From the NCBI GenBank assembly GCA_964351635.1, contig CAYGOR010000001.1:9086-33085 (forward strand): DNA of 24,000 bases, in the 5' to 3' direction. The stretch comes from an uncultured Candidatus Saccharibacteria bacterium. Lineage in GTDB: Bacteria; Patescibacteriota; Saccharimonadia; Saccharimonadales; SZUA-47. Positions within the stretch are counted from its first letter, which is position 1. The number at the start of each line of letters is the position of its first letter. The position numbers were made by a program, and so were the translations under genes. The notes under the pieces were generated by a model. The model was not told the DNA's origin. It made no database searches and worked only from the letters and a program-made list of their open reading frames with translations. Positions 1,771 to 18,928 of this stretch are shown here, in pieces.

Positions 1771-1802
1771 AAAAATCGGCCTATGCATCACGGCCGATTT
1801 TT
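1771..1802. terminator. Bidirectional intrinsic terminator after hsp20
   Basis: AAAAATCGGCC (1771-1781) and GGCCGATTTTT (1792-1802) form an 11-bp perfect stem with a 10-nt loop. An A-run and a T-run flank it on the two sides. Confidence 0.7.
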
Positions 1803-1838
1803 TATTTGATTGATTCCCGTTTTAGTATTAGAGGAAAT

Positions 1839-1884: not shown

Positions 1885-2337
1885 CTACGGAGTTGTGTCA
1901 GCTTGATTAAGGCGTCCAGTAACGAACCTAACGATTATCTGCGCAAGCGCTACTATGACAAGTCCAACTATTGCGTAGAGGATTGTATTCTTGGCATTTG
2001 TAACGTTCCCTGAGTCACCGTTGGATGTGATGTACCGTAGACCACCGATGATAATCATGATAACAGCAACTATACCGACTATAAGTGAGATAATGTTTAC
2101 AATAGTGGTGATGATATTGTTGAGCGTTCCAGCAGCTCCATCATCGCCTGCATCGCTTTCACAAGTAGCATCATCCGCATTTAGTGTAAAGTCCAGGTTG
2201 GCACCAGCACATAACTGGTTGTTTATGTTATCCCCGGCATCATCGCCGGCCGCACTTGCAACCGCAGGTATCAACGCTGGCGCTGCAAAACCTAGTGAGA
2301 GCAACATACTGGCTAAAATTCTTTTAAGTCTTATCAT
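1885..2337 (-). CDS. VirB2/TrbC-like T4SS pilin paralogue P6 (distal copy, with its own promoter and terminator)
   Basis: Signal peptide MIRLKRILASMLLSLGFAAPALIPAVASA, Cys-x15-Cys acidic loop, and the conserved hairpin IIGGLRYITSNGDSGNVTNAKNTILYAIVGLVIVALAQIIVRFV. ATG 2337 is preceded by AAGGAAG. The track start at 2379 is a TTG that overlaps the predicted -10. Confidence 0.75.
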   Translation of the reverse strand: MIRLKRILASMLLSLGFAAPALIPAVASAAGDDAGDNINNQLCAGANLDFTLNADDATCESDAGDDGAAGTLNNIITTIVNIISLIVGIVAVIMIIIGGLRYITSNGDSGNVTNAKNTILYAIVGLVIVALAQIIVRFVTGRLNQADTTP

Positions 2338-2367
2338 AGTTTCTTCCTTGTTATTTTGTTTAGTTAC

Positions 2368-2396
2368 TTTATACCACAAGCCTGTTGATTGCTCAA
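2368..2396 (-). promoter_or_regulatory. Internal promoter for P6: TTGAGC (2396-2391), 17-nt spacer, TGg-TATAAA (2376-2368)
   Basis: Read on the minus strand. The -35 starts right after the stop codon of P5. There is an extended -10 TG, and the predicted TSS near 2361 gives a ~24-nt leader carrying the SD. Confidence 0.5.
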
Positions 2397-2849
2397 TTAA
2401 TTTTGGTTCTGACCAGCATTTGGATTGGCAGGAACGGACTGTTGGACAGGTGGGTCCTTAGAGACTGTTGATACTACGTAGCGCACAATTACTTGGGCTA
2501 GGGCAATAATAACCAATCCAACGAGGGCGTAAATTATTGTGTTTCGAGCACTAGCAGTTGAACTGCTATCGCCGCTTGAAGTTACGTAGCGTATACCACC
2601 AACTATTAGCATAATGACGGCAATTACAGCACCTATTAACGACAATATGTTGATAACAGTCTCTATTGTAGAGCCTACTTTATTGCTATCTTCGTCAGCG
2701 TTATCCCCACATTCCTCTCCAGCAGCACCTAAACCAGCACAAATAGCATCTTTAGCATCTACGGCCATTACAGGTTGAGGCCCATTAACAAAAGCTAGTA
2801 GTCCTGTTAATAGCGTAAGGCTAACAAAAAATGATGCGATTTTTCTCAT
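2397..2849 (-). CDS. VirB2/TrbC-like T4SS pilin paralogue P5
   Basis: Signal peptide MRKIASFFVSLTLLTGLLAFVNGPQPVMA, Cys-x9-Cys acidic loop, and hairpin LIVGGIRYVTSSGDSSSTASARNTIIYALVGLVIIALAQVIVRYV. Its ATGA start overlaps the stop of P4. Confidence 0.75.
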   Translation of the reverse strand: MRKIASFFVSLTLLTGLLAFVNGPQPVMAVDAKDAICAGLGAAGEECGDNADEDSNKVGSTIETVINILSLIGAVIAVIMLIVGGIRYVTSSGDSSSTASARNTIIYALVGLVIIALAQVIVRYVVSTVSKDPPVQQSVPANPNAGQNQN

Positions 2850-3256
2850 AGGCGGTTCACTACAAATACTACTATAGTTCGGGCTAATGCGACAATTACT
2901 AATCCGACGGCTGAGTAGATAATGGCATTGCGTGAGTTCTGGACTTTGGTCGAATCACCTCCAGACAACGTCATCGTTATACCAGCAATGACGATTATAA
3001 TCACAGCTATGACCGCAGTAACTATCGCCAGTATATTAGCTACTCTCTCGATAATCCCGGTGCTGCCGACAATTGGATCATCATCGTTTTGGCCTTTGCT
3101 TGTTTCCTCGCAGGCAGGCGACTCTTTACGTTGATCGTCAGTCAAATCGTCACACACGTTACCTATTGGATTAAAGCTTTCTGCAGAGATATGAGCAGGG
3201 GCTATTGCACCCAATGGCAGGAACAACAAAACAAGCATGGCTACAAACTTCTTCAT
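2846..3256 (-). CDS. VirB2/TrbC-like T4SS pilin paralogue P4
   Basis: Signal peptide MKKFVAMLVLLFLPLGAIAPAHISA, Cys-x13-Cys acidic loop, and hairpin VIAGITMTLSGGDSTKVQNSRNAIIYSAVGLVIVALARTIVVFV. Its start abuts the stop of P3. Confidence 0.75.
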   Translation of the reverse strand: MKKFVAMLVLLFLPLGAIAPAHISAESFNPIGNVCDDLTDDQRKESPACEETSKGQNDDDPIVGSTGIIERVANILAIVTAVIAVIIIVIAGITMTLSGGDSTKVQNSRNAIIYSAVGLVIVALARTIVVFVVNRL

Positions 3257-3547
3257 CTAGACGCTCCCCGCAATGTAACGAACCAGTGTGAAAGCAAGAA
3301 CCGCTAAAACTAGCCCGACAGCAGCATAAATAATAGTATTCTTTGCCTTTGCAGCTTTATCAGCTTCACCACGACTGAGGACATACTGCATGCCTGCAAT
3401 CACGATAACTAGGAAGGCTATCCCGCCCATAACACCAAAAGCGAGCTCAAGAAGTATTTGCACTGTACCGCTGTCAGCGTTTGTTTTTGGTATATCTAGA
3501 TCGTTTGGGTCTATGTTAACTTGGCTGAAAAATTCTAGTAACTTCAT
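3257..3547 (-). CDS. VirB2/TrbC-like paralogue P3: minimal 96-aa copy with no signal peptide and no Cys
   Basis: It has the same hairpin (VIAGMQYVLSRGEADKAAKAKNTIIYAAVGLVLAVLAFTLVRYI) but a hydrophilic N-terminus, MKLLEFFSQVNIDPNDLDIPK. It abuts both neighbouring genes. Confidence 0.7.
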   Translation of the reverse strand: MKLLEFFSQVNIDPNDLDIPKTNADSGTVQILLELAFGVMGGIAFLVIVIAGMQYVLSRGEADKAAKAKNTIIYAAVGLVLAVLAFTLVRYIAGSV

Positions 3548-4321
3548 TTATCCAGTTATCCTCTCTGCTATAAAAGACACTACGCGGGCGGCAATCATGA
3601 CGATAACCAGTCCAATAGCCGCGTTTATAACCGTTTTGCGGGCACTGGCCGCCTTATCAGACTCTCCCTGGGACACTAGATACAGGAATGCACCCCAGAA
3701 GATCATAACGACCGCAGCTAATCCTGCTATCACCATCATAGCCTCTAAGACCGCCAGCCCAATTGGTAAGAAAGACATTACATCTACTTCTCCGTCAGCA
3801 TTTCTGCCTAGCACTGGTGTACATTTACCAGGTTCGCTGTCAGAGAAAATCGTTTTGTCTCTTTCACCGTCTAGGTACTTATACCAGGTCGGGATACCGA
3901 GAATTGACCTATCGACATCATCACACGGTTCTTTCACGATAGTAAAAGCCGGAAGTGGACTGAAGCTACGAGCTTCTGCTTTGCGACAATTCGAACCACA
4001 ATCTTCGTTGTATTGTCCTGGGTCAAAAGATTCACAATCTCGTGAACTATATTCACCAACTACCGCTCCTTGATTGCTGACGCTAACAGGCGCGATATAG
4101 CAGGCGCCGTTTGTAACTGCTAAATTAAACTCATCAGGGCATGTCACATCAGATATTGTTGTTATTGTTTCCTCACCAGTTGTTGTGCCGTAAACCTGGT
4201 AGCAGCCTGGTGATGCAGCATTAGCGGTTTCGCTTACACCAAAAAGGCCGATTGCTGAAAACAACAAGGTAGCTGTTGCCAAGACAATTTTAACTAAGCT
4301 CGATATTCTCGAAAAAATCAT
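3548..4321 (-). CDS. VirB2/TrbC-like paralogue P2 with a ~150-aa, 8-Cys extracellular insertion
   Basis: Signal peptide ...GVSETANA, then an ectodomain with 8 Cys, then hairpin IFWGAFLYLVSQGESDKAASARKTVINAAIGLVIVMIAARVVSFI. Its ATGA start overlaps P1. Confidence 0.7.
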   Translation of the reverse strand: MIFSRISSLVKIVLATATLLFSAIGLFGVSETANAASPGCYQVYGTTTGEETITTISDVTCPDEFNLAVTNGACYIAPVSVSNQGAVVGEYSSRDCESFDPGQYNEDCGSNCRKAEARSFSPLPAFTIVKEPCDDVDRSILGIPTWYKYLDGERDKTIFSDSEPGKCTPVLGRNADGEVDVMSFLPIGLAVLEAMMVIAGLAAVVMIFWGAFLYLVSQGESDKAASARKTVINAAIGLVIVMIAARVVSFIAERITG

Positions 4322-4707
4322 AAAACGCCTCCCGGAACTAAGAAGTTCAGCCCTGCATACATTACGATCAGTGTCAGAAGGGCGATTAATGCCCAGACTA
4401 TCCGTTTTCTAGCTGCTTCAATCTGGCCAGAGTTGTCTCGAGCGGTCATGTACTGGAGACCCGCTATCATTATCGAAGCCACAATCGCGATTCCGGCTAC
4501 AGCAGTCAGTAGGTTGATGCCCGTTACGATATAACTGATAATCTTACAGTTACCTTGATCCAGCTCTTCAGAAGGCCCGACTTCACAGTCGCTAGCCAGC
4601 CCGTTGCTCGCTACAGTATTATGGACTGAATAACTGCTCGCTTGTCCACTAGCCAACATAGGTGTTATGAAAAGCAAGGAAATAAAGTATGCCTTTAGTA
4701 ATTTCAT
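4318..4707 (-). CDS. VirB2/TrbC-like paralogue P1 (most divergent; first gene of the operon)
   Basis: Signal peptide MKLLKAYFISLLFITPMLASGQA, Cys-x12-Cys acidic loop, and hairpin MIAGLQYMTARDNSGQIEAARKRIVWALIALLTLIVMYAGLNFL. Confidence 0.65.
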   Translation of the reverse strand: MKLLKAYFISLLFITPMLASGQASSYSVHNTVASNGLASDCEVGPSEELDQGNCKIISYIVTGINLLTAVAGIAIVASIMIAGLQYMTARDNSGQIEAARKRIVWALIALLTLIVMYAGLNFLVPGGVL

Positions 4708-4793
4708 GATCTTGATGAGAAGTATAACAAAGAAGTTTAATGAAAATAATTAAATACCCCTATTTCACTGTAAAAAATGCTACTATTTAGCAT
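4708..4793. promoter_or_regulatory. AT-rich 86-bp divergent promoter region between the pilin operon (-) and the T4SS core operon (+)
   Basis: Minus strand: TGt-TATACT (4729-4721), 13 nt before ATG 4707. Plus strand: TGc-TACTAT (4778-4786), 7 nt before ATG 4794. Neither start has an SD. Confidence 0.45.
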
Positions 4794-7700
4794 ATGCATT
4801 TAATGTCTAGCTTTCGGAAATCTCTAAGGCCTATTTCTTTATTGCTCACCACTGGTTTGTTTTTCGCTTTGCTTTCAGCTCCTTCGATAGTCCATGCTTT
4901 TTCACAAAGCTCTAGTTTTAATAGTGCGGCAGTGTTTACGATTGAGAGTCTATCCTTCACTGCGACGGACGTGAGCAATCACGTAATCCATAACGATAAT
5001 CTCGAGAAATTAACTGGAGAGGGCACTCTAGATGCTGGACTTGCCAGCTTGAACCAACGCCTATCTGATGCAATGCCTATCGTGCTAGTGGATACAGATA
5101 TCACAGACCCAACACCTGACCTAGAGGCTCCAGGGCTCGGCAATGGTTGTGACGGGGGGCAAACAATCAAGCTTGAAAGAAAAAACGGTGATGAATGGCT
5201 ACTTACTGATTTGCATGTCGGGGCTAACGGAAACTGTGTTGACCTTCTCCAGGACAAAAATATTAAATTCTACGATAGCTCGCCCGCTGAAGCCAATATC
5301 GCGTTTGCTTTTATAGATAGCGAAACTATATCAATGGTAGATTCCGTAGGAAGTAGTAGTTATGGATTATTCCAACAAAACGATCCTGCCTTTCCTAACA
5401 CCTTTTATTCTGAGAGAGAAGGTCAATCAATTGAAGTGCTCAACCCTGGTACTGGAGGAACCTCATCGTTGCAATTATCTGCGGGGCTAACTCTTGACTT
5501 TAGTGATTCATCAGTGGGATCAGATCCAAAAGTAGCATTACTGTCTAGCACAGGGGAGCCGACTGCGATTGTAGGATCTGTGGGAGGTCCAAATGGTGGC
5601 GCAACTGCAGGCAACGTTGATTCCGCTCGAACATGTGATTCTGAAGGAGGAGAGTTCAGCTTCCTATTGTGTCCTATCCTAAGAGGCATAAATGAAGGTA
5701 TAGAACAGCTTGACCAAGAAATTGTTCAGAGTCTCGAAGTTAAAGACGATTATTACGAGTCTGACCGAACCAGGGCTATATGGGGGCGCATCCGAGACAT
5801 AGCCTACATACTACTAATACCAATCTTGCTCATAATGGTTATATCGACTGCGCTCGGATTCCAGTTCGTAGATGCCTATACCGTTAAAAGAGCGATGCCG
5901 CGCCTGTTGGCGGCTGTCATTTTTATGGCTCTTTCTTATGACATAGGAGTCCTGCTGATAGAAATATCTAATGGAGTTGGGGCTGGAATAGGCGGTATTA
6001 TAGCTGCACCTTTCGGGGGAGTTGATAACCTTCAGCTGCAAGATATTTTTGAAGTCAGTGGAGAAAACGATGTAACCGCACTATTCATCGGAGGCCCGCT
6101 AGCTGCTATTGGCGCCCTGACTGCATTATCGGCAGGGATATTAGGATCTTACTTACTAGTCTTTGCCTTAACTCTTGTAATCATTTTTGCACTGCTTGCA
6201 ATGAGGGAGCTGCTAATTATCGCCTTGCTTATTCTTGGTCCCCTAGCAATCTTATCCTGGATATTCCCAGGGAACGATAAACTCTGGAAGCTATGGTGGG
6301 GATCATTCTCTAAGCTAGTAATGATATACCCAATTATTGTTGGGATGATCGTTACAGGTAGGGCCTTTGCAGCACTGGTTAATGAATCGGTCGCTAGCGT
6401 ACCTACTGGTCCTATTGAGGGGATGTTCTTCGTAATAGTGAAGCTAACCGCCTACATCGGTCCGTATTTCTTCATCCTAGCTCTATTTAAATTTGCTGGT
6501 GGAGCCTTCTCAAACCTCGCTGGCATGGTCAACGACCGCGGAAAAGGTGTCTTCGACCGCCAGAAAAAATACCGCTCAGAAAAGCGTGGCCAACTAAGAA
6601 AAGATACGTTGGCAGGGAATAGATTCAAAGGTGCTAGAAAAGGCAGCATAGGGGATAGAATTAACAAGCGCGGCCTAAATGCGGGTGCAAGGATAGATGC
6701 TGTGAAGGCTGGCGGCGTGAAGAATGCCTACGGCGTAGGAGCTAGGGGGGCAGTTGAGGCCGCTAAAGAACGCAAAGCCCGTGATGAGGCTAAGCATGCA
6801 GCCGAAAACTTACAGCTGCAAGCTGAACTTAAAAACGATGACTTCGCCACAATGTTACAAATGATAATGGCAGGTGAAGATGAGCAAACTGTAAAAGACT
6901 ACCTGCGTAGTAAAGATTATAGTGCACCCTCAGTGGAGAAAAGTTATGCCCAGGCAGATGCTTTCCAGCGTGAATATGGATCCCATGCACTAGCAGGCAT
7001 GACGGTAACGGCAAAAGCTGCATCAAAAACTTCATATACTGGCGGTATTTCTGAAATGCTAGAAGACATAAAAGCACTAGCAGATAACGATGAGGCGCTT
7101 GCTATGAAAATGCTGGGTGAAGCTTCGGCAGCCGCTGCAGCAGCTGGTCGAAACGACCTTGGCGGCGGTAGCTACGGCGAAAAGGCAGGAATGCTCAAGT
7201 CTCTAATGCGAGGGGGGTCTTCGGTAGAATATACAGACGAACAAGGAGAAACGGGCACTGTATCCTATCAATCTGCTCAATATGTTAACGACAGGCAAAA
7301 CCAAAAAGTGCTTGACAGTTTAACCACCTATGATATGGCTCGTCTACACCCAACGGCAGCAAAGAATATTTCTCAAAGCTACCAAACTATGACCACTAAC
7401 GCTGCTGCGGCTGTACAATCAGCAAAGACACCAGAAGAACGTGAAGCAGCTATGCGGGCGCTGGGTCAAGTTACAGCGTCGTTTCAGAAGTTTAAGATGG
7501 ATGCTGCAACTTCGGGTAGCTCAGAGGTCGCACGTGTTGTAGCTAACGCATCAAATGAAGAATTCAAAGACATTTCACTGGAAATTGACGGACAAAGAAT
7601 TCAGACCACTGACCAACTTGTTGAGTACGCACAACAAGCTTCTCAAGCCAGTCAGCCAAGGCCTAGTCGCGATGCAGAAGGTCGTATAGAATACGAGGTC

Positions 7701-7853
7701 GATGGAAGGGTTAAGATGACAAAATCTCAATTGCCTGATGACTCAGAAGCATTTGCTAAAGGCTTCGAATCAGTTAATCCGCGCGCAGCTTTAGGGCTTT
7801 CAACTGAAGACCAGATACGGATGAGGGAAGAGCAAGAAAATAATAATCAGTAG
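4794..7853 (+). CDS. VirB6/TrbL-like polytopic membrane protein with an N-terminal ectodomain and a long hydrophilic C-terminal tail
   Basis: Signal/anchor LLLTTGLFFALLSAPSIVHA, then a ~300-aa ectodomain (4 Cys). About 8 hydrophobic helices span aa ~333-575 (e.g. YLLVFALTLVIIFALLAMRELLIIALLILGPLAILSWIF). An A/K/E/Q-rich tail follows from aa 580 (nt 6531) to the end. Confidence 0.65.
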   Translation: MHLMSSFRKSLRPISLLLTTGLFFALLSAPSIVHAFSQSSSFNSAAVFTIESLSFTATDVSNHVIHNDNLEKLTGEGTLDAGLASLNQRLSDAMPIVLVDTDITDPTPDLEAPGLGNGCDGGQTIKLERKNGDEWLLTDLHVGANGNCVDLLQDKNIKFYDSSPAEANIAFAFIDSETISMVDSVGSSSYGLFQQNDPAFPNTFYSEREGQSIEVLNPGTGGTSSLQLSAGLTLDFSDSSVGSDPKVALLSSTGEPTAIVGSVGGPNGGATAGNVDSARTCDSEGGEFSFLLCPILRGINEGIEQLDQEIVQSLEVKDDYYESDRTRAIWGRIRDIAYILLIPILLIMVISTALGFQFVDAYTVKRAMPRLLAAVIFMALSYDIGVLLIEISNGVGAGIGGIIAAPFGGVDNLQLQDIFEVSGENDVTALFIGGPLAAIGALTALSAGILGSYLLVFALTLVIIFALLAMRELLIIALLILGPLAILSWIFPGNDKLWKLWWGSFSKLVMIYPIIVGMIVTGRAFAALVNESVASVPTGPIEGMFFVIVKLTAYIGPYFFILALFKFAGGAFSNLAGMVNDRGKGVFDRQKKYRSEKRGQLRKDTLAGNRFKGARKGSIGDRINKRGLNAGARIDAVKAGGVKNAYGVGARGAVEAAKERKARDEAKHAAENLQLQAELKNDDFATMLQMIMAGEDEQTVKDYLRSKDYSAPSVEKSYAQADAFQREYGSHALAGMTVTAKAASKTSYTGGISEMLEDIKALADNDEALAMKMLGEASAAAAAAGRNDLGGGSYGEKAGMLKSLMRGGSSVEYTDEQGETGTVSYQSAQYVNDRQNQKVLDSLTTYDMARLHPTAAKNISQSYQTMTTNAAAAVQSAKTPEEREAAMRALGQVTASFQKFKMDAATSGSSEVARVVANASNEEFKDISLEIDGQRIQTTDQLVEYAQQASQASQPRPSRDAEGRIEYEVDGRVKMTKSQLPDDSEAFAKGFESVNPRAALGLSTEDQIRMREEQENNNQ

Positions 7854-7867
7854 CAGTTCGTGATAGG

Positions 7868-7896
7868 TTGCATTTTCATTGTAATTATGCTAATAT
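7868..7896 (+). promoter_or_regulatory. Candidate internal promoter TTGCAT (7868-7873), 17-nt spacer, TGc-TAATAT (7888-7896), predicting a leaderless transcript starting at ATG 7903
   Basis: Hexamers and spacer read directly. Only 6 nt separate the -10 from the ATG, and there is no SD. Confidence 0.45.
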
Positions 7897-7902
7897 ATCT
7901 CT

Positions 7903-9300
7903 ATGGAACGCCCTAGCTTTCACCGTTCAGAGCATATGCTATCGACAAAAGAACACCTGTCGCGAACTCAGCATAGCCCTCACTCACTTGAAAACCATCC
8001 CTCCAACAATACTGACCTTGATGAACCGGGGGTAAATCCGAATCAAACCCCGATTGTCTCAAGCCTAGATGTCAGAGACGAGGAGGGTAATCTAGTATTC
8101 AGAACTAATGATCATGATCCTCGAAACAGGCCTGATGATCCCACTGGTGGGTCGCCGGACGCTATAGACTCAGGTAACAAGCCAAACTCACACACAAAAG
8201 CTTGGGGCGGACATAGTGAATCTGATGCGATTGTTCAAGATATGTTTACGAAGCTTGCGCCCGCAAGCTCAGCAGTTCCATCAAGGTTTAAATACAGTAA
8301 AGATACCTCAGCTAGCGACGGTGAGCAAGTCGCTAGATTTATTAATGAATACATCGAAAACTCTGGCGTTGGTCGTCTAGCTTTAACTGACGTGCAAGTT
8401 AGTGCTCTAGCAAGGTCAATTGATAGGGCACCAGCTATTAGTGAGCGGGGGCAACCCAGAAGAATCAAGCGATTAAGACGCGCTTTAAGCAATAGCGCTG
8501 GATCTGCCCATCAGGCATATAATGACAAGAAACTTGGATCAACTCCTGGAACCTTGAGAAATCCTGCATCAGACAGTCCCATTACTGTCGGGGTACAGAG
8601 AAATGCATATATCGCTCCAATATCTCGTCGACAGCTAAAGAAGAGGTTGAAAGCATCGTGGGCGGAATATGACCGCAGAGTAGCCCAGGTCGAAGCAAGT
8701 AAACTCTCTGGAAATTCCCGACCAGCTGACCCCGAAGGCAGCACAATTGGCCCAGCAAGCAGAGGACGTAAAAGGACCGCAAAATCTATCAATTATTACA
8801 AACACCATGAACATGTTGCGGCAGATGAAGTTGCGAAGCATACCTACGGTGTGGTCGACTTAGCCAAATATATTCCTTTCTACAGTGGACACATCAAGGC
8901 CGCATCACCTCTAAGCAATGTTAGAGGACTCCGAAAGTCAGCTCTTAGACTTGTGAAGGATGATGAAAAGAAAATGGAAAAGATGGAAAAACAAGCAGAC
9001 ATAGTAAATGAAATGATTAGAAAAGACGCATTCAGCCGTTACTTAATAGCCAAAAGTGAGGGTCGCTCAGACTCCGAAATCCGGGCACTTGAAGGCAAAC
9101 TAGGCATAATGCGTAACCTGCGCGACTACGAATTACCGCGCGCAGAAACAAGACGTGAAAAACGTCTAGCTAGACGGGTTGAAAAACGCCCTGGCAAAAT
9201 TCCTAGGGCGGTATCATCAGACAGAGTACGACGGAGACGCCTACGTAAGAAGAAAATAGCCGAGGGTGAAATTCACGTATTAAATGGTTCTGACACTTAG
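7903..9300 (+). CDS. Hypothetical protein: hydrophilic, strongly basic, apparently low-complexity, with no TM segment and no recognised domain
   Basis: A 465-aa ORF in operon context. It has R/K-rich tracts (RRIKRLRRAL, RRQLKKRLKAS, RRVEKRPGKIPRAVSSDRVRRRRLRKKKIAEGE) and an S/P/N/D-rich N-terminal third. Confidence 0.6.
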   Translation: MERPSFHRSEHMLSTKEHLSRTQHSPHSLENHPSNNTDLDEPGVNPNQTPIVSSLDVRDEEGNLVFRTNDHDPRNRPDDPTGGSPDAIDSGNKPNSHTKAWGGHSESDAIVQDMFTKLAPASSAVPSRFKYSKDTSASDGEQVARFINEYIENSGVGRLALTDVQVSALARSIDRAPAISERGQPRRIKRLRRALSNSAGSAHQAYNDKKLGSTPGTLRNPASDSPITVGVQRNAYIAPISRRQLKKRLKASWAEYDRRVAQVEASKLSGNSRPADPEGSTIGPASRGRKRTAKSINYYKHHEHVAADEVAKHTYGVVDLAKYIPFYSGHIKAASPLSNVRGLRKSALRLVKDDEKKMEKMEKQADIVNEMIRKDAFSRYLIAKSEGRSDSEIRALEGKLGIMRNLRDYELPRAETRREKRLARRVEKRPGKIPRAVSSDRVRRRRLRKKKIAEGEIHVLNGSDT

Positions 9301-9392
9301 CTCTTAAATCTAGTACCGTCATTTCCCAGGGGCTAAACTTAAGCCTCATAAACTTTTGAAGTTTTTAACTGTAAGTTATACTTATGGTTATC

Positions 9393-10466: not shown

Positions 10467-10502
10467 ATCTAATTCTAGGGTGGGAAGCAGCATAACTAAC
10501 TC

Positions 10503-11303: not shown

Positions 11304-13222
11304 TGGGACTATTTGGCGGGAAAAACAACATACCTGATCCTATCGCTCAGGCTCAAGCGCAGTCTGCTCAAGAGCAGGCTGAAGTGCAAAACGCCTTCCA
11401 AAAAGGCATCACAGCTCTTCGCGACTTTATCGCGCCAGCGTCCTTGGAGTTCGAGAGCAGCCAATTCAAAATCGGCACTCGCATCGGAAGAACCTACTAC
11501 GTTTTTGGCTATCCTAGGCAAATCTACACTGGATGGCTATCAAGCATGGTTAACCTCGATGAGGTAATAGATTTGTCATTATTCGTTTATCCTGTTGAAA
11601 GCCAGGTCGTGTTAGAAAATCTAAAGAAAAAAGTTGGTCAACTGGAAGCAGGACTACAAATTGACGCTGAAAAGGGCCGCGCACGTGACCCAGGAAAGCA
11701 AGCAGCGATTCAAGATGCCGAAGAGCTGCGTGACAAACTTCAAGTCGGCGAAGAGCGCTTCTTTAGATTTGGATTTTACTTCACTGTCTATGCAAACGAC
11801 CCTGATGAAATGGAGTTTGTGTCTCACAAGGTTGAGAGTGTGCTCGCGCAGCAACTGGTCTACAGTAAGCCTGCCAGTGCACAGCAAGAACAAGGCCTCA
11901 ACTCGACCCTGCCACAGTTCACGGACCAGCTCCAAATTCGCCGCAACATGAATACAGGTGCAGTTTCTACCAGCTTCCCATTCACAAGTGCTGACCTCAC
12001 CCAGGATGATGGCGTGCTCTACGGAGTCAATATGCATAACTCTGGCCTGGTTATATTTGATCGATTTTCTTTAGAGAACGGCAACAGCGTTGTGTTCGCT
12101 AAATCAGGTGCTGGTAAAAGTTTCACAGTCAAACTCGAGGCGCTGCGCAGCATGATGTTTGGCACTGAAGTATTTATAATCGACCCAGAAAACGAGTACG
12201 AAAGACTGGCCGATGCAGTCGGTGGAGCCTATGTCCGCTTAAGCCTAAACAGCTCAACCCGTATTAACCCTTTTGATTTGCCAAGAGTTATCGAGGAAGA
12301 AGAGGGCGACAACGCCCTAAGAAGCAATCTAATAACCCTCCACGGACTATTAAGATTGATGATGGGCGGAGCGCAAGCCCAAATGGCCAACCAGGGTGGT
12401 CAAGTCGTAATGCCGGCCCTTAGCCCGGTCGAGGAATCGGATTTGGACGCAGCTCTGATAGAGACGTACTCTAAAGCTGGCATCACCAACGACCCTTTGA
12501 CTCACAATACGCCAGCCCCAACGATAAATGATCTCTACGACACACTCTTGCACATGGGCGGAACAGGGCCTGAACTAGCGCAAAGGCTGAGGAAATACAC
12601 GACAGGGACATTCGCCGGTATCTTCTCGCAGCAAAGCAACATCAATATCGACAACCCAATGGTTGTCTTCAACGTACGTGACCTGGAAGACGAACTGAGG
12701 CCAGTTGCGATGTATATCGTTTTGAATTATATCTGGAATAAAACTAAAACTGACCGAAAAAAGCGCATGTTAGTCGTCGATGAAGCTTGGCAGCTAATGA
12801 AGTATGAGGACTCAGCCAACTTCTTGTTCTCACTTGCGAAGCGGGCCAGAAAGTATAACCTTGGCATTACAACCATTACGCAAGATGTTGAGGACTTTAT
12901 GGACTCTAAAATGGGCAGGGCGATTGTAGCAAATGCCAGTATGCAGATACTGCTCAAGCAATCTGCTTCAGCCGTAGACGTGCTGGCTAATACATTTAAG
13001 CTAACCAGTGAAGAAAAGAAGCGCTTGAGTCAGTTCCCGGTCGGGCAGGGCCTATTCTTTGCGGGTGAAAATCATGTACACATACAGATTACTGCCTCGC
13101 CGACTGAAACCTCTCTCATTACTACGAACCCGGAAGAGGTTCAGCAACTAGAACAGCAACGCCAGCAACAGCAGGTGAATCTTGACCAATCGGGGTATAA
13201 TGAGTCGGTAAATCTGAGATGA
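11303..13222 (+). CDS. virB4: VirB4/TraE-family T4SS ATPase
   Basis: Motif LRDFIAPASLEF....FKIG....RTYYV.GYPR, Walker A SGAGKS (12104-12121, Lys272) and Walker B MLVVDEAW (Asp493/Glu494 at 12779-12784). Also ITTITQD and a Q-rich C-terminus. Confidence 0.85.
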   Translation: MGLFGGKNNIPDPIAQAQAQSAQEQAEVQNAFQKGITALRDFIAPASLEFESSQFKIGTRIGRTYYVFGYPRQIYTGWLSSMVNLDEVIDLSLFVYPVESQVVLENLKKKVGQLEAGLQIDAEKGRARDPGKQAAIQDAEELRDKLQVGEERFFRFGFYFTVYANDPDEMEFVSHKVESVLAQQLVYSKPASAQQEQGLNSTLPQFTDQLQIRRNMNTGAVSTSFPFTSADLTQDDGVLYGVNMHNSGLVIFDRFSLENGNSVVFAKSGAGKSFTVKLEALRSMMFGTEVFIIDPENEYERLADAVGGAYVRLSLNSSTRINPFDLPRVIEEEEGDNALRSNLITLHGLLRLMMGGAQAQMANQGGQVVMPALSPVEESDLDAALIETYSKAGITNDPLTHNTPAPTINDLYDTLLHMGGTGPELAQRLRKYTTGTFAGIFSQQSNINIDNPMVVFNVRDLEDELRPVAMYIVLNYIWNKTKTDRKKRMLVVDEAWQLMKYEDSANFLFSLAKRARKYNLGITTITQDVEDFMDSKMGRAIVANASMQILLKQSASAVDVLANTFKLTSEEKKRLSQFPVGQGLFFAGENHVHIQITASPTETSLITTNPEEVQQLEQQRQQQQVNLDQSGYNESVNLR

Positions 13223-13265
13223 TACTTAACCTAAACAAACACTAAACCATCGAGGGCGCAACAAG

Positions 13266-16200
13266 ATGGCAGAACCAGCAAGAAATTTAGCCGATGATGA
13301 GGGCGACAAAAGCCCTAAAAAAATCAAGGCTACCCTAAAGATAGTCCAGGGCGAAGGTAAGGGCGATGGAATTCCGGCTGGAAAGCTTTCGGCTGCGAAA
13401 GGACCAAGGCGCCGAAGACCGGCGAAAAAACCAGCTGGCGGATCTGGGTCTCGACCACGTCACTTATCTGTAGTGCCCGATGCGCCCGATGATTCAACTG
13501 GCAGTTCGGTAGGAAACGGGGGCCAAGCACCAGTTTTTGCCCCGCCGAACGCTAGTGATCGTATTGCTGACGGGAATATTGACGATGACGGCAATCCTAC
13601 CTTAGAGGATGAGGACTCAAAAGACGCCTCAGACAGCGAAGAAGCTAAGGAAAATTCAAATTCAGAGGCGCCTGATTCGTCGAACAGCGCCAATGAGATT
13701 CCCTTTAAAGAAAATGACGCCACACCAGAAGACGGGCAGGATAAAAGTGGTGTCAGCGACGATGAGTTAAACAAGTTTGGTTTCGCTAATGATCCCGATA
13801 AAGGCTCATGGGCAAATGCAACTGATCAAGCCAAGCGCAACGCCCAAATCAAAAAAAATAACAGCAAGAAAAAGAAGGGTATATATGCGCTAGTCGGAGG
13901 CATCGGCGTCACATTGGCGGTGGTAGGAGCGTTTCTAGCGATACCGCAGCTTGCCATGAACAACGCGCTAGACAAACTAACTAGTCGATTCTCCGACCGC
14001 ATGAGCTACGCTGTTGAAAAACGATTTGATAAATATGTCGGCAAGTATGTGACTAAAAACGTAGCCCCAAGTCTAAAAGATGGCCGCTGCGGTAAAACGT
14101 TAACTGCGAGCTGCATTAAAGTCAATGAGTCTACGGGATTAGTTAGAACTGCGATAACGGGCTGGAATGATGCAAGGCTGGAAAGTCGGCTGGAAAAGAG
14201 TGCTGGCGTAACATTTCAGCGCAGAGCAGATACAAATGAAATAGACCTTGTTGGCAGAGACGGCAAAGTGCTCACATCTTTCGGTCAAAGAATATCCTCT
14301 CGTCAGCTAGAGGACCTTATCAGGAAAGAGACCAATTATGAAGGTGTACTAAAACGAAGACATTTGAGGTCAGTCGGGAGCAGATATGGTGTAAAGTGGT
14401 GCCTGAGCTTCGTGGTGAATGAAAAAATCTGTGGGGCCCGTAATAAAGCGGACGAGCTGAACACTCGATTCTCGGCCTTTAAACGTAGGCAATTACTTAT
14501 GATAGCAAGGGTCGCGGAGCCAATAAGCACCAGGGGAGGGGCTGTCCTTTTTTGCATGCTTCAGTCTTCCTGTGACATAGATAAAAACACAGGATTAGAA
14601 GATTCTCTTAAACTCTTGGGGAAAGCCGACGACGAAGCATTCAGGAAGATCGTGGACGAAATAGGAGATAAGAAAGTGTCTCAATATCTGGTAGATAAAA
14701 TCTTAGACATCACTATACGGCAAGCTTTACCTAAGGTCGCTACAGCCATTTCGTCTGCGGCAACAGGAGTTGGAGCCATCTATGGAGCGGCGATTATTCT
14801 AGACCTAATTGATAGATTTGACACTGCCATTGATTCAGGAGCTCTCAAGGCATTCATCCTAGACCGTAACGCGCAAGCAGCTATGCTTTTCATGTCCACT
14901 ATTGTGTCGGGCATAGAAGAAGCTCAGGATTTCAGCGTAGGCATGCCCGAAATTAGTGCTACTTTCCAGCAACTAACTGGATTCAACGTGAGTCGGTTCT
15001 ATCAGTCGCTCGCAAGCGGCGAGCCTACTAGTGAATTGAGTTGCAACGATGGGTATTTAATCCCTAAAGACTCCCCAGAGCTTGTGTGCCCAGAAAACAG
15101 CCTGCAGCCCGATGTACCTGTGGAGGAGTTTTTGTCAGGTCCAGAGTTCCAATTCGCTACAGACCATCTCCTAAAAGAATGGCGAACTTGCTATATATTT
15201 TCCCTTAAAGGAGGTTGTGCTGAGACCGTTGGCGATACTGCTAGAAGAGGGCTGAAGGCGGTTGATGGAGTTTTTGGGGCGGTAGGTGGGCTCATTAGCT
15301 TTGCTATAAACAAAATCCCTGGCGTGAGTAGCTTTACCGAGTATCTAGGAACTCATTTCGCAAGCGTTCTTAACACAGTAATAAACAAAGGATTACCAAT
15401 TAGTGTTGATGCAACTGCGGTTGGCTGGAGGGCTTTTGATCAGATGGCAGCAGCATTTGATTATTCGTACAACCAGTTGTTAGGTGGCTATCAGGATGAG
15501 CAGGGCCAGTTCCAAGGTTTTGGGGCCGGCGAGATATCAGAAGAAGATGCCGAAGAGCTAGACGTAGCTATAGCCGACTGGAGAGGGGAGAAACTGCAGA
15601 GTCAATCTGTTTTTGCTCGCTATTTAGACGTTACTAATCCAGACTCATTAGCCGCCACGTCTTTAACCAGAGTTTCATTTGCACTGCCTTTTGCCGGACA
15701 AGCGTCCCAGCTGCCTAGCCCTGTGAACTTTGCTTCGCTTTTTGGTGGCCTATTTGGTAACAAGGCAAGTGCGGCCATACCTAGTAATGTTTACAGTGAA
15801 TCTAATTTTGGAGTTACCCAGCATGCATTCACTGTAGAACAGCTTGAAACTGACCCAGAAGAGCTAACAGAAGAATTCTGCGCCGAAGAAAAAGCAGCTT
15901 TTGCAGAAGCCAGGGAAAACGATAAAGCGGCGACGAGCCTATGCATGCTAGATGAGGCAATGGTCGACATGGTAACAAAAGCCTTCAGCCCTGACCCGCC
16001 CGGAACGTCAATAAGTACATTGGTCGGGACTCAAAGCTCGTTCACAGGATTGGATGGCCCGACCATACCCTATAACCAGCACGAAACACCTACTACTGTT
16101 GTCAGGACTGGTAGATACGCTGACTGGTCTGGCTTGACTCCTACAGGAGTATTAGGCCAGAACAGCGCTGGACAACCAATTAACGTATACGTCAGAAACG

Positions 16201-16844
16201 CAGCTCCAAATATTAGCGAACCCCGACGTGTCGTTATTGGTACGTCCATACACGGCTCAGAGAACGCAGGTCAGTTCCTGGTTCATGAACTTTTATACAA
16301 TACGGATTTGCCGGACGACGTAGAACTAATTGCAATACCTGAAATAAATAAGTCTGGAGTACCTTTTAGCAAGCGAAAAAATGCCACCGGAACTGACGAA
16401 TCTAATAGAAGTGATATCACGATAGGGGTAGACCTCAACAGGAACTGGGACTACAACTGGTCTAGCGCGGGGTCCACTGACCCAACCAACAAAAATTACC
16501 GAGGTACTGAACCTGAGAGCGAACCAGAAACAAAAGCTGTTGCTGACTTTTTACGTTCGCTCGGCAAGGTAGATTTGTTTGCTAGCTTTCACGCTAACCT
16601 AGACTATGTTGCCCCCGTCGGCAACACGCCAATAGAAGTAGCGGTTGCATACAGCAGTCGGTCTGGGATGAACGTAGGTAACGGACGAACGCAATATGTT
16701 GAACAGAGCGGCTCCATGGATGCTTGGTTTAATTCACTGACAGGCAGCCCGACTCTCTTGGTTGAGCTGTCTAGCTCAGACTCACGAGCCTATATTCACA
16801 AGCAAGTTAACTCAATGCTCGAGGCTATAGATGCTCTTCCTTAA
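13266..16844 (+). CDS. Large membrane-anchored protein: ~204-aa charged cytoplasmic low-complexity N-terminus, TM helix, ~750-aa unknown domain, and a C-terminal M14 zinc-carboxypeptidase-like domain
   Basis: TM GIYALVGGIGVTLAVVGAFLAIPQL (from nt 13878). M14 hallmarks: HGSE (His996 at 16251, Glu999), VDLNRNWDYNW, and SFHAN (His1109 at 16590). A GAGGG SD lies upstream of ATG 13266. Confidence 0.7.
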   Translation: MAEPARNLADDEGDKSPKKIKATLKIVQGEGKGDGIPAGKLSAAKGPRRRRPAKKPAGGSGSRPRHLSVVPDAPDDSTGSSVGNGGQAPVFAPPNASDRIADGNIDDDGNPTLEDEDSKDASDSEEAKENSNSEAPDSSNSANEIPFKENDATPEDGQDKSGVSDDELNKFGFANDPDKGSWANATDQAKRNAQIKKNNSKKKKGIYALVGGIGVTLAVVGAFLAIPQLAMNNALDKLTSRFSDRMSYAVEKRFDKYVGKYVTKNVAPSLKDGRCGKTLTASCIKVNESTGLVRTAITGWNDARLESRLEKSAGVTFQRRADTNEIDLVGRDGKVLTSFGQRISSRQLEDLIRKETNYEGVLKRRHLRSVGSRYGVKWCLSFVVNEKICGARNKADELNTRFSAFKRRQLLMIARVAEPISTRGGAVLFCMLQSSCDIDKNTGLEDSLKLLGKADDEAFRKIVDEIGDKKVSQYLVDKILDITIRQALPKVATAISSAATGVGAIYGAAIILDLIDRFDTAIDSGALKAFILDRNAQAAMLFMSTIVSGIEEAQDFSVGMPEISATFQQLTGFNVSRFYQSLASGEPTSELSCNDGYLIPKDSPELVCPENSLQPDVPVEEFLSGPEFQFATDHLLKEWRTCYIFSLKGGCAETVGDTARRGLKAVDGVFGAVGGLISFAINKIPGVSSFTEYLGTHFASVLNTVINKGLPISVDATAVGWRAFDQMAAAFDYSYNQLLGGYQDEQGQFQGFGAGEISEEDAEELDVAIADWRGEKLQSQSVFARYLDVTNPDSLAATSLTRVSFALPFAGQASQLPSPVNFASLFGGLFGNKASAAIPSNVYSESNFGVTQHAFTVEQLETDPEELTEEFCAEEKAAFAEARENDKAATSLCMLDEAMVDMVTKAFSPDPPGTSISTLVGTQSSFTGLDGPTIPYNQHETPTTVVRTGRYADWSGLTPTGVLGQNSAGQPINVYVRNAAPNISEPRRVVIGTSIHGSENAGQFLVHELLYNTDLPDDVELIAIPEINKSGVPFSKRKNATGTDESNRSDITIGVDLNRNWDYNWSSAGSTDPTNKNYRGTEPESEPETKAVADFLRSLGKVDLFASFHANLDYVAPVGNTPIEVAVAYSSRSGMNVGNGRTQYVEQSGSMDAWFNSLTGSPTLLVELSSSDSRAYIHKQVNSMLEAIDALP

Positions 16845-18186
16845 GGCAAAGCCGTTTGTTGTAATGCTAGCCGTAGTGATTCTGCTGTTTTCACAATCTA
16901 TCTCAGTGTCTGCAGAGCTACTGCCATTCACAACGGATGACTTAAATTCCGTAAATAGGTCAGAGAATTTTCGTGACCGCATATTCACTACCACCCAAGC
17001 CTGCAGTCTGGATATTTCAGCAGGCAACGCAACTAAAGAAGAGCTCTACCAGAACGCATGGAATTACTTAACTGACCCTGCTGGAATAGGGCTATCTCCT
17101 GAGGCTGCGGCCGGAATTATGGGTAACCTCGACAAAGAGTCAGCCGGAACAATGGATCCCCAAATTGTACAGTTTTCCGCAAACTTCCCAGACAACAGGA
17201 GCCCTGAGCTACCGATAGATGAAATACGGGGTAAGTATGGTTATGGTATTGCTCAGTGGACTTACGGCCCTCGACAGGACAACTTGATTGCATATGCAAG
17301 TGAGACAAATCGCTCTAGCGGTGACCTAGGGCTACAGCTTGACTTTCTATTGAAAGAATTAAGCGAGTCCTACGTGGGAGTTAAGGCAGTGATGGAAGAT
17401 CCTGATGTCACAATTGAGAGGGCGTCCGATGTATTTTTGCTTGAGTTCGAGCGGCCAGCAGCCGTCCTTCCTCCCCCTAGAGGCACAGCAGAATCAAAAG
17501 CCAACGAGATCGCTGACAGGCGAGAGCGTGGTGTTCGAATATTCAACACTTACTCAAACTTACCTGCAGGTTCATTCAAATCATCGACTTGTGCTGCCGG
17601 AATCAATGGTAGCGTTATTGTTGACATGGAGTCAGCTGACACAAGCGCTGTTCCTTGTGCACCCGGAACCGAAGACGCAGGAATTACTCAGGGGTACAGA
17701 AGAGGTGAAGAAACTACGATTCGCCTCTGTAACATTACCGTGAATGGCCGCACAAGTCGCGTTAATTCACAGTTATCGGGTCCTCTGCTGGCACTCTTCA
17801 ACACAGCGAGAGGAAGTGGCGTTCCTTTAGAGCTAAATGGAATATTTAGAGATATGGACGGTCAAATTGGAATATATACTAAATGGTGTAGTTCGGGCGG
17901 CATTACGCCGACGCCACCTCCTTATCCAAAAGCTTCGTATAGTGATTACACTCGTTGTCCTGGAGGAGCGCCACCAGGCTACTCGAATCATCAAATGGGG
18001 CTTGCGATAGATTTTAACTGTGACGGCTCACTAATCCCTCAGTCCTATTCATCCGCTCAGTTAAATGAGTGTTTCCAGTGGCTTGTCTCAAATGCAGGAG
18101 TTTTTGGATTATTTGAACTAGGAAAAGGAGAAAATCGTAATGGCTCAGGCTACGAAGGTTGGCACTGGTCAGTAGATGGAAGGTAA
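16831..18186 (+). CDS. Secreted two-domain peptidoglycan hydrolase: phage-tail-lysozyme-like N-domain plus M15 (VanY-like) C-domain
   Basis: Signal peptide ...LLFSQSISVSA. Lysozyme-like motifs AAAGIMGNLDKESAG and YGYGIAQWTYGPRQDNL. M15 motifs GYSNHQMGLAIDF (His387 at 17989) and EGWHWS. A GAGG SD lies 6 nt upstream. The gene overlaps the upstream gene by 14 nt. Confidence 0.75.
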   Translation: MLFLKAKPFVVMLAVVILLFSQSISVSAELLPFTTDDLNSVNRSENFRDRIFTTTQACSLDISAGNATKEELYQNAWNYLTDPAGIGLSPEAAAGIMGNLDKESAGTMDPQIVQFSANFPDNRSPELPIDEIRGKYGYGIAQWTYGPRQDNLIAYASETNRSSGDLGLQLDFLLKELSESYVGVKAVMEDPDVTIERASDVFLLEFERPAAVLPPPRGTAESKANEIADRRERGVRIFNTYSNLPAGSFKSSTCAAGINGSVIVDMESADTSAVPCAPGTEDAGITQGYRRGEETTIRLCNITVNGRTSRVNSQLSGPLLALFNTARGSGVPLELNGIFRDMDGQIGIYTKWCSSGGITPTPPPYPKASYSDYTRCPGGAPPGYSNHQMGLAIDFNCDGSLIPQSYSSAQLNECFQWLVSNAGVFGLFELGKGENRNGSGYEGWHWSVDGR

Positions 18187-18187
18187 T

Positions 18188-18928
18188 ATGAGAAAAAATA
18201 GATCAATATTAATTCTAGTGATTGTAGCGACAATTATTTTAGCTACTGTCATCGGACTTTACTTAGTTAACCAAAGTGGAGACATTGTAAACCCTAACGA
18301 GGATGAACTAATCGAAGGGGACGCGGCAGGTGTTAGCTACGCGGTTATATATAGTTCGAGTGAATTGTATAGCTTCTTAAACCAAAACGACGACACGTAT
18401 AGACTGATCGAGGAAGACTTAAGCCGTTTTGTACAAATAACAAATCCTAGTTTTACCGACCCAGATACTCTTTATGGCTTCACAATTACAAAATCCGCCA
18501 TAAATGGTGATACTGCTGAATTCGAAGGCAAGTTCTATGCCTTGAATGACAATATAAAACTTGAGGTACAAAAATTTAGCGGCGGTAAAATCAGTCTTTC
18601 AGTAACAAATCAAAGCACGGGAGAAAATGTTGACGAGCAGTTAAACTTAGGTGGCAAAAAGAACGAAGTTATAATATCTCTACCTATAGAAGAAGATAAT
18701 TACTCAATAAGATATTTAAACTCTGAAGACAAAATTGTAGTTAGCTTTCTGCCTGGTTATTCGCGCGAAGAAGCTGTAAAAACAAAAACAATACTGCAAA
18801 ACCTATTCGAGGGTCAGTATCCTGAGAGTGAGGTACTATTGGCTATAAACGGCATTGGTACATTCTCCTCAATAGAAGAAATAATATCTTTTGCAGACGA
18901 CCCAGACAATAAACCTTTCGAGCGGTAG
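18188..18928 (+). CDS. Bitopic membrane protein of unknown family; its VirB8/PrgL-like topology is the only link to T4SS
   Basis: MRKNRS followed by TM ILILVIVATIILATVIGLYLV, then a ~215-aa extracytoplasmic domain. GGAAGG SD at 18178-18183. ATG 18188 lies 1 nt after the upstream stop. The track start at 18176 is less likely. Confidence 0.6.
   Translation: MRKNRSILILVIVATIILATVIGLYLVNQSGDIVNPNEDELIEGDAAGVSYAVIYSSSELYSFLNQNDDTYRLIEEDLSRFVQITNPSFTDPDTLYGFTITKSAINGDTAEFEGKFYALNDNIKLEVQKFSGGKISLSVTNQSTGENVDEQLNLGGKKNEVIISLPIEEDNYSIRYLNSEDKIVVSFLPGYSREEAVKTKTILQNLFEGQYPESEVLLAINGIGTFSSIEEIISFADDPDNKPFER

Follow-up and report, generated by a model that had tools for sequence, protein, structure and literature searches.

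A type IV secretion system locus beside the replication origin of a Saccharibacteria chromosome: a further instance of the Patescibacteria apparatus and a probable host-contact machine

The gene cluster described here is a type IV secretion system (T4SS) locus in a 24-kb stretch of Saccharibacteria DNA (the window, by which the whole analysed stretch is meant). Its closest described relative is the homologous locus of ML1 (Southlakia epibionticum), SEML1_0004-0019, which carries six pilin genes and lies beside dnaA (Wang et al. 2023, Cell, PMC10633639). The same study described an "apparent T4SS (SEML1_0006-0019)", which resembles the conjugative systems of Gram-positive bacteria, has essential pilins and lacks recognisable coupling or relaxase proteins. 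In transposon sequencing (Tn-seq) the ML1 locus was almost entirely essential for epibiotic growth (PMC10633639). The gene order in ML1 is dnaA, dnaN, recF, a 249-aa protein, hydrolases, VirB4, a TrsD-like protein, PrgI, VirB6-like proteins, pilins, Hsp20 and comFC (PMC10633639). A survey of 3,035 genomes, more than 2,400 of which have a VirB4 homologue, found a monophyletic Patescibacteria VirB4 clade nested in the MPF-FATA class; the other sequences of that phylogeny come from conjugative plasmids, integrative conjugative elements (ICEs) and archaeal systems (Quinonero-Coronel et al. 2025, PMC12102498). The surveyed systems comprise TrsD, PrgI, VirB6 and arrays of 2-11 VirB2-like genes with about 25% identity, have no relaxases and lie in proximity to dnaA, dnaN and rnpA (PMC12102498). 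A 2025 FEMS review repeats this account and speculates that the system could serve as a conduit through which the cell takes up material from its host. In a cultured Patescibacterium, tubular structures interpreted as T4SS pili have been seen reaching into the host.

The locus in the window is a further instance of this architecture and is no new kind of system. An initial annotation, made from the letters of the DNA, had described an oriC-adjacent chromosomal T4SS-like machine that combines a monoderm-type core with VirB2-like pilins and lacks DNA-processing genes. Because every element of that title is in print, the locus is already known, and the statement that the apparatus is structurally and functionally uncharacterised is contradicted by the Tn-seq essentiality in ML1 and by the survey of 3,035 genomes. 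The window has the features of the Patescibacteria-clade T4SS: a VirB4 of the MPF-FATA class (assigned by model score, not by a tree), TrsD upstream of it, PrgI, a VirB6-like protein, a pilin array, proximity to dnaA, and no relaxase or type IV coupling protein (T4CP). It is very probably a conserved chromosomal T4SS of Saccharibacteria that acts as a host-contact machine for epibiotic growth.

The window comes from an uncultured lineage of metagenome-assembled genomes (MAGs), and contigs of GCA_030430405.1 are 99.6-99.9% identical to the window. Genes were identified from a map of the open reading frames (ORFs) and from profile searches of the whole window against Pfam and NCBIfam models. Two gene sets diverge, one on the minus strand (1885-4707, six pilins) and one on the plus strand (4794-18928, eight genes); the domain searches agree almost wholly with the genes and coordinates first listed. 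The locus consists of the following parts.

1885..2379, minus strand: pilin 1, VirB2-like (PF18895 7.4e-16; TrbC PF04956 2.8e-6; NF045849 Mbov_0395 pilin-like 7e-9)
2397..2849, minus strand: pilin 2 (PF18895 2.3e-13), 41% identical to pilin 1
2846..3256, minus strand: pilin 3 (PF18895 7.3e-10)
3257..3547, minus strand: pilin 4, 96 aa (PF18895 1.3e-12), no obvious signal peptide, no Cys
3548..4321, minus strand: pilin 5, 257 aa (PF18895 1e-9 at residues 191-251)
4318..4707, minus strand: pilin 6, the most divergent (PF18895 3.6e-5, 24.2 bits, below the cut-off)
4708..4793, no strand: divergent control region, 86 bp, AT-rich
4794..7853, plus strand: extended VirB6/TrbL-like polytopic membrane protein, 1019 aa (weaker, convergent evidence)
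7903..9300, plus strand: soluble, strongly basic protein, 465 aa, isoelectric point (pI) 10.1, no transmembrane (TM) segment, no family match
9384..10466, plus strand: PrgI/VirB3-like protein (PF12666 E 2e-11, 44.7 bits against a cut-off of 27)
10503..11303, plus strand: TrsD-like protein, 266 aa, equivalent of the VirB4 N-terminal domain (NF041427 TrsD 8e-7)
11303..13222, plus strand: VirB4-family ATPase, 639 aa, the C-terminal two-thirds (NF045971 5.8e-109; PF19044/PF12846/PF01935)
13266..16844, plus strand: large bitopic envelope protein, 1192 aa, TM segment 208-226, with an M14 (MpaA-like) peptidase domain at residues 961-1121 (PF00246 3.6e-21)
16831..18186, plus strand: secreted lysozyme and VanY/M15 D-Ala-D-Ala carboxypeptidase (PF18013, Phage_lysozyme2, 7.4e-23; PF02557 1.3e-13)
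18176..18928, plus strand: bitopic membrane protein, 250 aa, one TM segment at residues 10-28 and an ectodomain, VirB8-like in topology only

The initial annotation had proposed that synteny be compared across genomes. With one genome taken per GTDB species, at least 578 genomes encode a close relative of the window VirB4, and 80 loci were kept, all labelled as Saccharibacteria, Saccharimonadales, Patescibacteria or unclassified-bacterium MAGs, with VirB4 80-96% identical. Gene presence was counted in the 40 loci that have full 10-kb flanks. PrgI, TrsD and VirB4 are found in 40/40, the VirB6-like gene in 38, the pilins in 35-38 and dnaA in 35, and recF and dnaN adjoin the locus in 38/40. The counts are lower for hsp20 (25/40), the lysozyme protein (22/40), the M14 protein (12/40), the bitopic protein (7/40) and the basic protein (1/40); the low-count genes are fast-evolving and keep their position. 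Two Saccharibacteria species (L038 and L047) have PrgI-TrsD-VirB4 in another neighbourhood, without recF/dnaN or an adjacent VirB6-like gene, and the pilin genes of L047 are found about 10 kb from it; some lineages have thus undergone rearrangement of the locus.

No relaxase, T4CP or integrase domain was found by profile searches in any ORF of the window, which also contains no tRNA, no Rfam family and no att-like flanking direct repeats beyond chance 16-31-mers; within the window the absences first reported are thus correct. The relaxase and T4CP search covered, besides the window, 7.4 kb past its dnaA-side end on a 99.6%-identical contig, where yidC, jag, a glycosyltransferase, a GDSL lipase and a Wzy-like gene lie and no mobility genes were found. 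The findings support a vertically inherited, non-conjugative T4SS-like apparatus. Since no relaxase or coupling protein accompanies the locus and it is inherited vertically beside oriC, it is not a conjugation machine, and since recF-dnaN is kept beside it in 38/40 loci, it is not an ICE. On the central point of the initial annotation, a domesticated, non-conjugative T4SS-like apparatus of an epibiotic candidate phyla radiation (CPR) cell, domain searches, synteny and literature agree.

The VirB4, PrgI/VirB3 and VirB6-like proteins are predicted parts of a cytoplasmic-membrane translocon of the monoderm (MPF-FATA) type. The motor is encoded by two genes, as had been noticed at the outset. The VirB4 protein scores 365 bits against the CD1110 model NF045971 (cut-off 325) and covers positions 174-735 of the 752 in the model; its motifs are intact, with Walker A (AKSGAGKS) at residue 266 and Walker B (MLVVDE) at residue 489. 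The TrsD-like protein matches positions 2-119 of the same CD1110 model, and PF26593 (TraC-like) is matched in the precomputed annotation of a 99.9%-identical copy. The stop codon of the trsD-like gene and the start codon of virB4 share 1 nt. Among the matches listed (120, with at least 8,000 scored), all VirB4 homologues are 615-665 aa long and therefore also lack the N-terminal domain; TrsD and VirB4 are both present in 40/40 loci, the TrsD-like protein at 59-96% identity, and a profile of the TrsD orthologues matches the N-terminus of the full-length VirB4 of C. botulinum. Based on these observations, the split is stable and ancient, of the pGO1 TrsD/TrsE type, and is not a frameshift. At the level of sequence, the VirB4 motor is shown to be under strong purifying selection.

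The 1019-aa protein consists of a signal/anchor segment, an ectodomain of about 300 aa, a TM core at about 330-565 and a helical C-terminal domain of about 400 aa. It is accepted as an extended VirB6-like protein from sequence and model comparisons, and is the weakest-supported among the defining features of the locus. PF19590 TrbL_3 is matched in the precomputed annotation of a 99.9%-identical copy, TrbL is the commonest family, though sub-threshold, among 26 VirB6-like orthologues (4/26), and the ML1 orthologue was independently annotated as TrbL/VirB6 (Wang et al. 2023, PMC10633639). The AlphaFold (AF2) model built from 55 sequences has a pLDDT of 76, with the TM core above 90, and the membrane-protein matches recognised among PDB folds are R388 TrwI/VirB6 chains (7o3v_F, probability 0.89, TMt 0.43), none at E<=1e-3; the list also has one weaker Dot/Icm DotA-IcmX entry, equally not significant. 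The family of the core comprises 8245 cluster representatives. Direct hmmscan of the protein or its core against the local Pfam returned no TrbL family, and the precomputed TrbL_3 match was not reproduced; a PDB sequence-profile search with the family gave noise only. The VirB6/TrbL-like call of the initial annotation is thus retained on weaker evidence that converges from TrbL_3, the TrbL orthologues and the TrwI folds. The PrgI/VirB3-like call is secured by PF12666 at 44.7 bits; this protein has two N-terminal TM helices followed by a charged tail of about 290 aa.

PF18895 (T4SS_pilin) is matched by all six minus-strand ORFs, five of them above the gathering score of 26.6 bits and the sixth at 24.2 bits, and four of the six have additional, weaker matches to TrbC/VirB2 PF04956. 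The six VirB2/TrbC-like small proteins recognised initially are therefore confirmed by the PF18895 matches. The genes are tightly packed, with 4-nt overlaps or gaps of 0-59 nt. All six proteins have a C-terminal two-helix hairpin in common, with 24-41% identity to pilin 1; a signal peptide is present in five and one Cys pair in four. Pilin 1, in which a signal peptide precedes two hydrophobic helices, probably starts at the ATG at 2337, giving a protein of 150 aa, a form that exists in database records. Pilin 5 carries an insert of about 150 aa, rich in Cys (8 Cys), N-terminal to the hairpin, and is possibly a tip or adhesin-type subunit. The C-terminal hairpin of pilin 6 aligns with those of the other pilins. 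A tblastn search with pilin 1 against plasmids gave no match; plasmid pilins were found by profiles only.

Three predicted peptidoglycan-cutting activities (lysozyme, M15 and M14) are encoded in two proteins, and the domains and metal motifs of both agree with the two cell-wall hydrolases of the initial annotation. The C-terminal M14 domain of the 1192-aa protein, whose positional equivalent in ML1 is SEML1_0007, has an HGSE zinc motif. The secreted protein at 16831-18186 carries the metal-binding motifs SNHQMGLAID and EGWH and is, as judged from its domains, a putative functional analogue of VirB1. The 250-aa bitopic protein belongs to a fast-evolving family, for which word-indexed searches returned the protein itself and then three relatives. 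Its AF2 model is mediocre (pLDDT 63) because the alignment held four sequences. Compared with the PDB, the model gave no match at E<=1e-3 and none to VirB8, TraM or TcpC; weak cystatin/NTF2-type matches alone were obtained from this mediocre model, at E 0.04-0.4. The protein had been described as having VirB8 topology, and the topology of one TM segment and an ectodomain is correct, but a VirB8 fold was not found. The ML1 equivalent, SEML1_0004, is essential and was classed as prealbumin-like and BT0923-like, not NTF2-like; the NTF2-like protein of ML1, SEML1_0012, is found at a different position, is non-essential (Wang et al. 2023, PMC10633639) and has no counterpart in the window.

The slot between the VirB6-like gene and PrgI was examined in the window and in loci L002-L077; of 51 Saccharibacteria species, about half have no gene there. 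Filled slots encode soluble proteins without TM segments, which are often very basic (pI 9-11.6) and in many cases end in a positively charged C-terminus. The 23 slot proteins of at least 200 aa form 18 mutually unrelated sequence clusters. The protein at 7903-9300 has no Pfam or NCBIfam match and is detectable in just two other species. The slot proteins could be very fast-evolving orthologues or true replacements. It is improbable that this is a lineage-specific cargo or adaptor slot, with proteins that are translocated effectors or nucleic-acid-binding adaptors; if it were, they would define what the essential machine moves between epibiont and host.

In the proposed mechanism, VirB4, together with TrsD and the PrgI anchor, would power the extraction of pilins from the membrane and their polymerisation on the VirB6 platform. 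The assembled pilins would form a short tube or pilus through the epibiont's own wall to the host bacterium, and the lysozyme, M15 and M14 enzymes would open the wall for it. The resulting contact organelle, needed for epibiotic growth, would import host macromolecules or send proteins into the host. Several points weigh against a host-contact machine. No pilus or channel of a Patescibacteria-clade T4SS has been purified or resolved and no substrate has been identified. A VirB8-like scaffold, usual for monoderm T4SSs, was not found in the window, and the VirB6 assignment depends on sub-threshold or precomputed matches and on non-significant fold matches. In many Patescibacteria T4CP homologues lie away from virB4 (Quinonero-Coronel et al. 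2025, PMC12102498), and a T4CP could be encoded elsewhere in the source genome.

Two proposals concern what the machine moves. As an import conduit, a sub-hypothesis compatible with host contact, the T4SS would take up host RNA, DNA or other cytoplasmic macromolecules and so nourish a cell unable to make nucleotides. This can be entertained only tentatively. Nucleotide synthesis is missing in Patescibacteria, VirB4 relatives drive the archaeal Ced DNA import (the window VirB4 matches CedB weakly, at 1.8e-14, far below the cut-off), and a comF-like gene is a conserved neighbour; import was proposed by Quinonero-Coronel et al. 2025 (PMC12102498) and in the FEMS review, and uptake of RNA from the host, as well as tubes that penetrate it, are reported in a 2026 preprint. 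The same preprint, however, calls the uptake mechanism unresolved, and a nucleic-acid-binding or nuclease component is not identifiable in the locus. Moreover, loss of comEC in ML1 ends transformation and leaves growth unaffected; therefore, classical DNA uptake is not the essential function of the T4SS. In the other proposal, the machine injects proteins into the host or places them on it and thereby manipulates or damages the host cell; the 7903-9300 protein would be a candidate substrate. The slot proteins, soluble, fast-changing and often very basic, many with positive C-termini, speak for export. T4SS signals can be charged and C-terminal, and the C-termini of the slot proteins recall such signals. 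Some T4SSs, e.g. Ptl and the Brucella VirB system, export proteins without a T4CP, and export was suggested as an alternative by Wang et al. 2023 (PMC10633639). The proposal is nevertheless doubtful, as no effector has been identified, the slot gene is missing in about half of the species and the locus encodes no T4CP or other recognisable substrate receptor.

Two other readings were considered. The initial annotation had offered DNA/nucleotide acquisition as in ComB. In favour of a ComB-like competence system for natural transformation, a relaxase and a T4CP are absent from ComB too and a comF-like gene adjoins the locus. This option is highly unlikely, because transformation of ML1 depends on comEC and type IV pili, comEC loss spares growth, and the T4SS is essential independently of comEC. 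ComB, furthermore, is a diderm VirB2-4/6-10 system, and VirB7, VirB9 and VirB10 domains (ComB7, ComB9 and ComB10) are absent from all ORFs of the window; the ComB-type reading was rejected on these grounds. It is scarcely credible that the locus is an ICE, or the decaying remnant of one, that came to lie near oriC by chance. The VirB4 does belong to the conjugative CD1110/MPF-FATA family, and the closest relative outside the CPR, on an Embleya plasmid, has a T4CP and a Replic_Relax protein beside virB4. On the other hand, 38/40 species loci agree in position and gene order, VirB4 is 80-96% identical, all genes are intact and retain their catalytic motifs, the homologous locus is essential in ML1, and the published phylogeny is one of class-wise vertical descent. 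The conservation at the same site across species, together with the absence from the window of integrase, relaxase, T4CP, tRNA and att repeats that could mark a boundary, effectively refutes an ICE.

The two gene sets had been described as divergent operons that share an 86-bp control region. Exactly 86 bp separate the start of pilin 6 (4707) from the ATG at 4794 that begins the VirB6-like gene, but the count of two operons is only approximate. An extended -10-like motif, TGCTAnTAT, occurs three times in the window against 1.0 expected, at 4778-4786, at 7888-7896 and, on the minus strand upstream of dnaA, at 22795-22803, and all three copies directly precede genes. The first, TGCTACTAT, lies 7 nt before the ATG at 4794 of the VirB6-like gene, and the second, TGCTAATAT, 6 nt before the ATG at 7903 of the basic-protein gene. 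Because such elements directly precede both 4794 and 7903, the plus side probably comprises more than one transcription unit. Neither gene has a Shine-Dalgarno sequence, which suggests leaderless mRNAs. Similar -10-like boxes are present near the starts of recF, rnpA and comF. The control region is not alignable across species, save for a TAAAAAATGCTA element common to locus L004. An exact 16-nt repeat, CTGTAAAAAATGCTAC, is found at 4768-4783, where it overlaps TGCTACTAT, and at 9808-9823 inside the PrgI gene; the pair could be due to chance (about 0.1 expected) or be an internal promoter.

The flanks are as first annotated, with hsp20 and comF on one side and recF-dnaN-dnaA on the other; rpmH and rnpA lie beyond dnaA.

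324..1043, minus strand: comF/ComFC-like phosphoribosyltransferase (Pfam Pribosyltran 1.5e-11), a flank gene outside the machine
1258..1752, plus strand: Hsp20 small heat-shock protein (PF00011 2.5e-18), a conserved neighbour of the pilin operon
1766..1807, no strand: inverted repeat with 16-nt arms, 94% complementary, a 10-nt spacer, and A-runs and T-runs on its sides
18932-19972, minus strand: recF (translation; precomputed Pfam on the near-identical contig L001)
20003-21097, minus strand: dnaN (translation; precomputed Pfam on L001)
21367-22752, minus strand: dnaA (translation; precomputed Pfam on L001)
22753..23085, no strand: dnaA-rpmH intergenic region with five DnaA-box-like sites at 22816-22939
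23086-23223: rpmH; rnpA is also in this flank

Exact-protein look-ups gave no record for comF (two starts), hsp20, pilin 2, the VirB6-like protein or rnpA. The position of the comF-like gene is occupied in ML1 by SEML1_0021 (K02242). Hsp20 is 71-93% identical among the loci in which it adjoins the pilin operon (25/40), and its ML1 orthologue, SEML1_0020, is essential (Wang et al. 2023, PMC10633639); a functional link between Hsp20 and the pilins, e.g. chaperoning, is conceivable. The inverted repeat between the convergent hsp20 and pilin 1 genes is probably a bidirectional intrinsic terminator.

DnaA-box-like sites number 12 across the window, with 4.8 expected, and five of them cluster at 22816-22939; the region 22753-23085 is probably oriC or a dnaA control region. 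The 269-bp gap between dnaN and dnaA (21098-21366) is overlapped by an 83-aa ORF (21119-21370, minus strand) that has no family match and no homologue detected in the 40 loci; related loci have small, unrelated ORFs in the same place. As the gap holds two DnaA-box-like sites (21238 and 21269), it is more likely to be non-coding origin or control DNA than a gene. With oriC at the cluster of DnaA boxes, the 14-kb core set (4794-18928) would be transcribed head-on to the fork and the pilin operon co-directionally, an orientation that is the same in ML1. The published gene-dosage argument for proximity to the origin is silent on the head-on orientation of the core genes. GC skew across the 24 kb tracks the coding strand and is uninformative on fork direction.

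The best VirB4 matches outside the CPR in PLSDB are from Embleya (40% identity), Streptomyces (37%), Pontibacillus (37%) and Priestia (36%), whereas classical CD1110 plasmids have about 29% identity to the window VirB4. The four clusters are:

Embleya sp. NBC_00896 plasmid NZ_CP108778.1 (L085, 7520-17384)
Pontibacillus sp. ALD_SL1 NZ_CP062975.1 (L084, 7483-17036)
Streptomyces sp. BHT-5-2 p1 (L087)
Priestia megaterium pFDU301A (L088)

All four have a PF18895 pilin gene upstream of virB4 (41.8-72 bits in the profile search); the Embleya pilin ORF is missing from the PLSDB gene table. VirB6-like and PrgI/VirB3-like genes were detected upstream of virB4 in the Embleya, Streptomyces and Pontibacillus clusters, and were not detected there in the Priestia cluster. 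The TrsD-like sequence is separate or fused to PrgI, the two forming one ORF in Embleya and Streptomyces. The Embleya cluster includes a T4CP and a Replic_Relax protein and therefore looks conjugative. The Pontibacillus cluster has no T4CP or relaxase nearby, has a large hydrolase gene after virB4 and lies between chemotaxis and flagellar genes. Unlike the window, these clusters have one or two pilin genes, and their hosts are free-living and carry them on plasmids or megaplasmids. The whole module, with its pilins and its split-off TrsD, may have arisen from a subclass that survives on conjugative elements in Actinomycetota, the phylum to which the hosts of Saccharibacteria belong, and not be a chimera with diderm pilins. 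Closeness is measured here by identity and profile scores, and because no tree was built, the relatives are a lead, not a result. They bear on a question left open by the published phylogeny, whether the original T4SS already included the pilins. The premise of the initial annotation that T4SSs of Gram-positive bacteria are not known to use VirB2-type pilins is outdated, both by these PF18895 pilins beside non-CPR virB4 genes and by a preprint of December 2025, in which conjugation of pCF10 requires the VirB2-like PrgF, modelled as a pilus, and nearly all conjugative plasmids of Gram-positive bacteria are predicted to encode VirB2-like proteins (ter Beek et al. 2025).

The Patescibacteria apparatus is the first T4SS for which essentiality to the carrier bacterium itself has been reported, and it is a leading candidate for the means by which ultrasmall Patescibacteria exploit their hosts. 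The value of the window is comparative. VirB4, TrsD, PrgI, the VirB6 core and the pilin hairpin are fixed parts, and turnover is seen in the hydrolase domains, in the last bitopic protein and in the basic-protein slot; the pairing of PF18895 pilins with the same type of VirB4 already exists in the non-CPR relatives, which is relevant to the origin of the pilins. ML1 and the window have in common hsp20 with comFC past it, six PF18895 pilins, VirB6-like, PrgI, TrsD-like, VirB4 and hydrolase proteins, a bitopic protein of about 250 aa, recF-dnaN-dnaA, and the lack of a relaxase or T4CP nearby. ML1 alone has a second large "T4SS protein" (0011) and the NTF2-like protein (0012) between VirB6 and PrgI, where the window has a single soluble basic protein, and an extra PEGA exported protein (0005). 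The hydrolase domains are shuffled, with M14, lysozyme and VanY in the window and two lysozyme-like domains, a Cys protease and a DD-peptidase in ML1.

With the conjugative MPF-FATA T4SSs, the window shares PrgI, a VirB6-like protein, multi-domain wall hydrolases, a VirB4 that passes the CD1110 equivalog cut-off and, as in pGO1, a separate TrsD-like gene. Unlike them, it has no T4CP, relaxase, oriT-type accessory genes or surface adhesin and no demonstrable VirB8-like protein; it has six divergent pilin copies, and it is fixed in the chromosome beside oriC, not carried on a mobile element. ComB of H. pylori and the archaeal Ced system are, like the window, driven by VirB4, devoid of a relaxase and repurposed from conjugation. 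ComB differs in being diderm, with VirB7/9/10 homologues, and Ced in using CedA/CedB, of which the window has only the weak CedB match.

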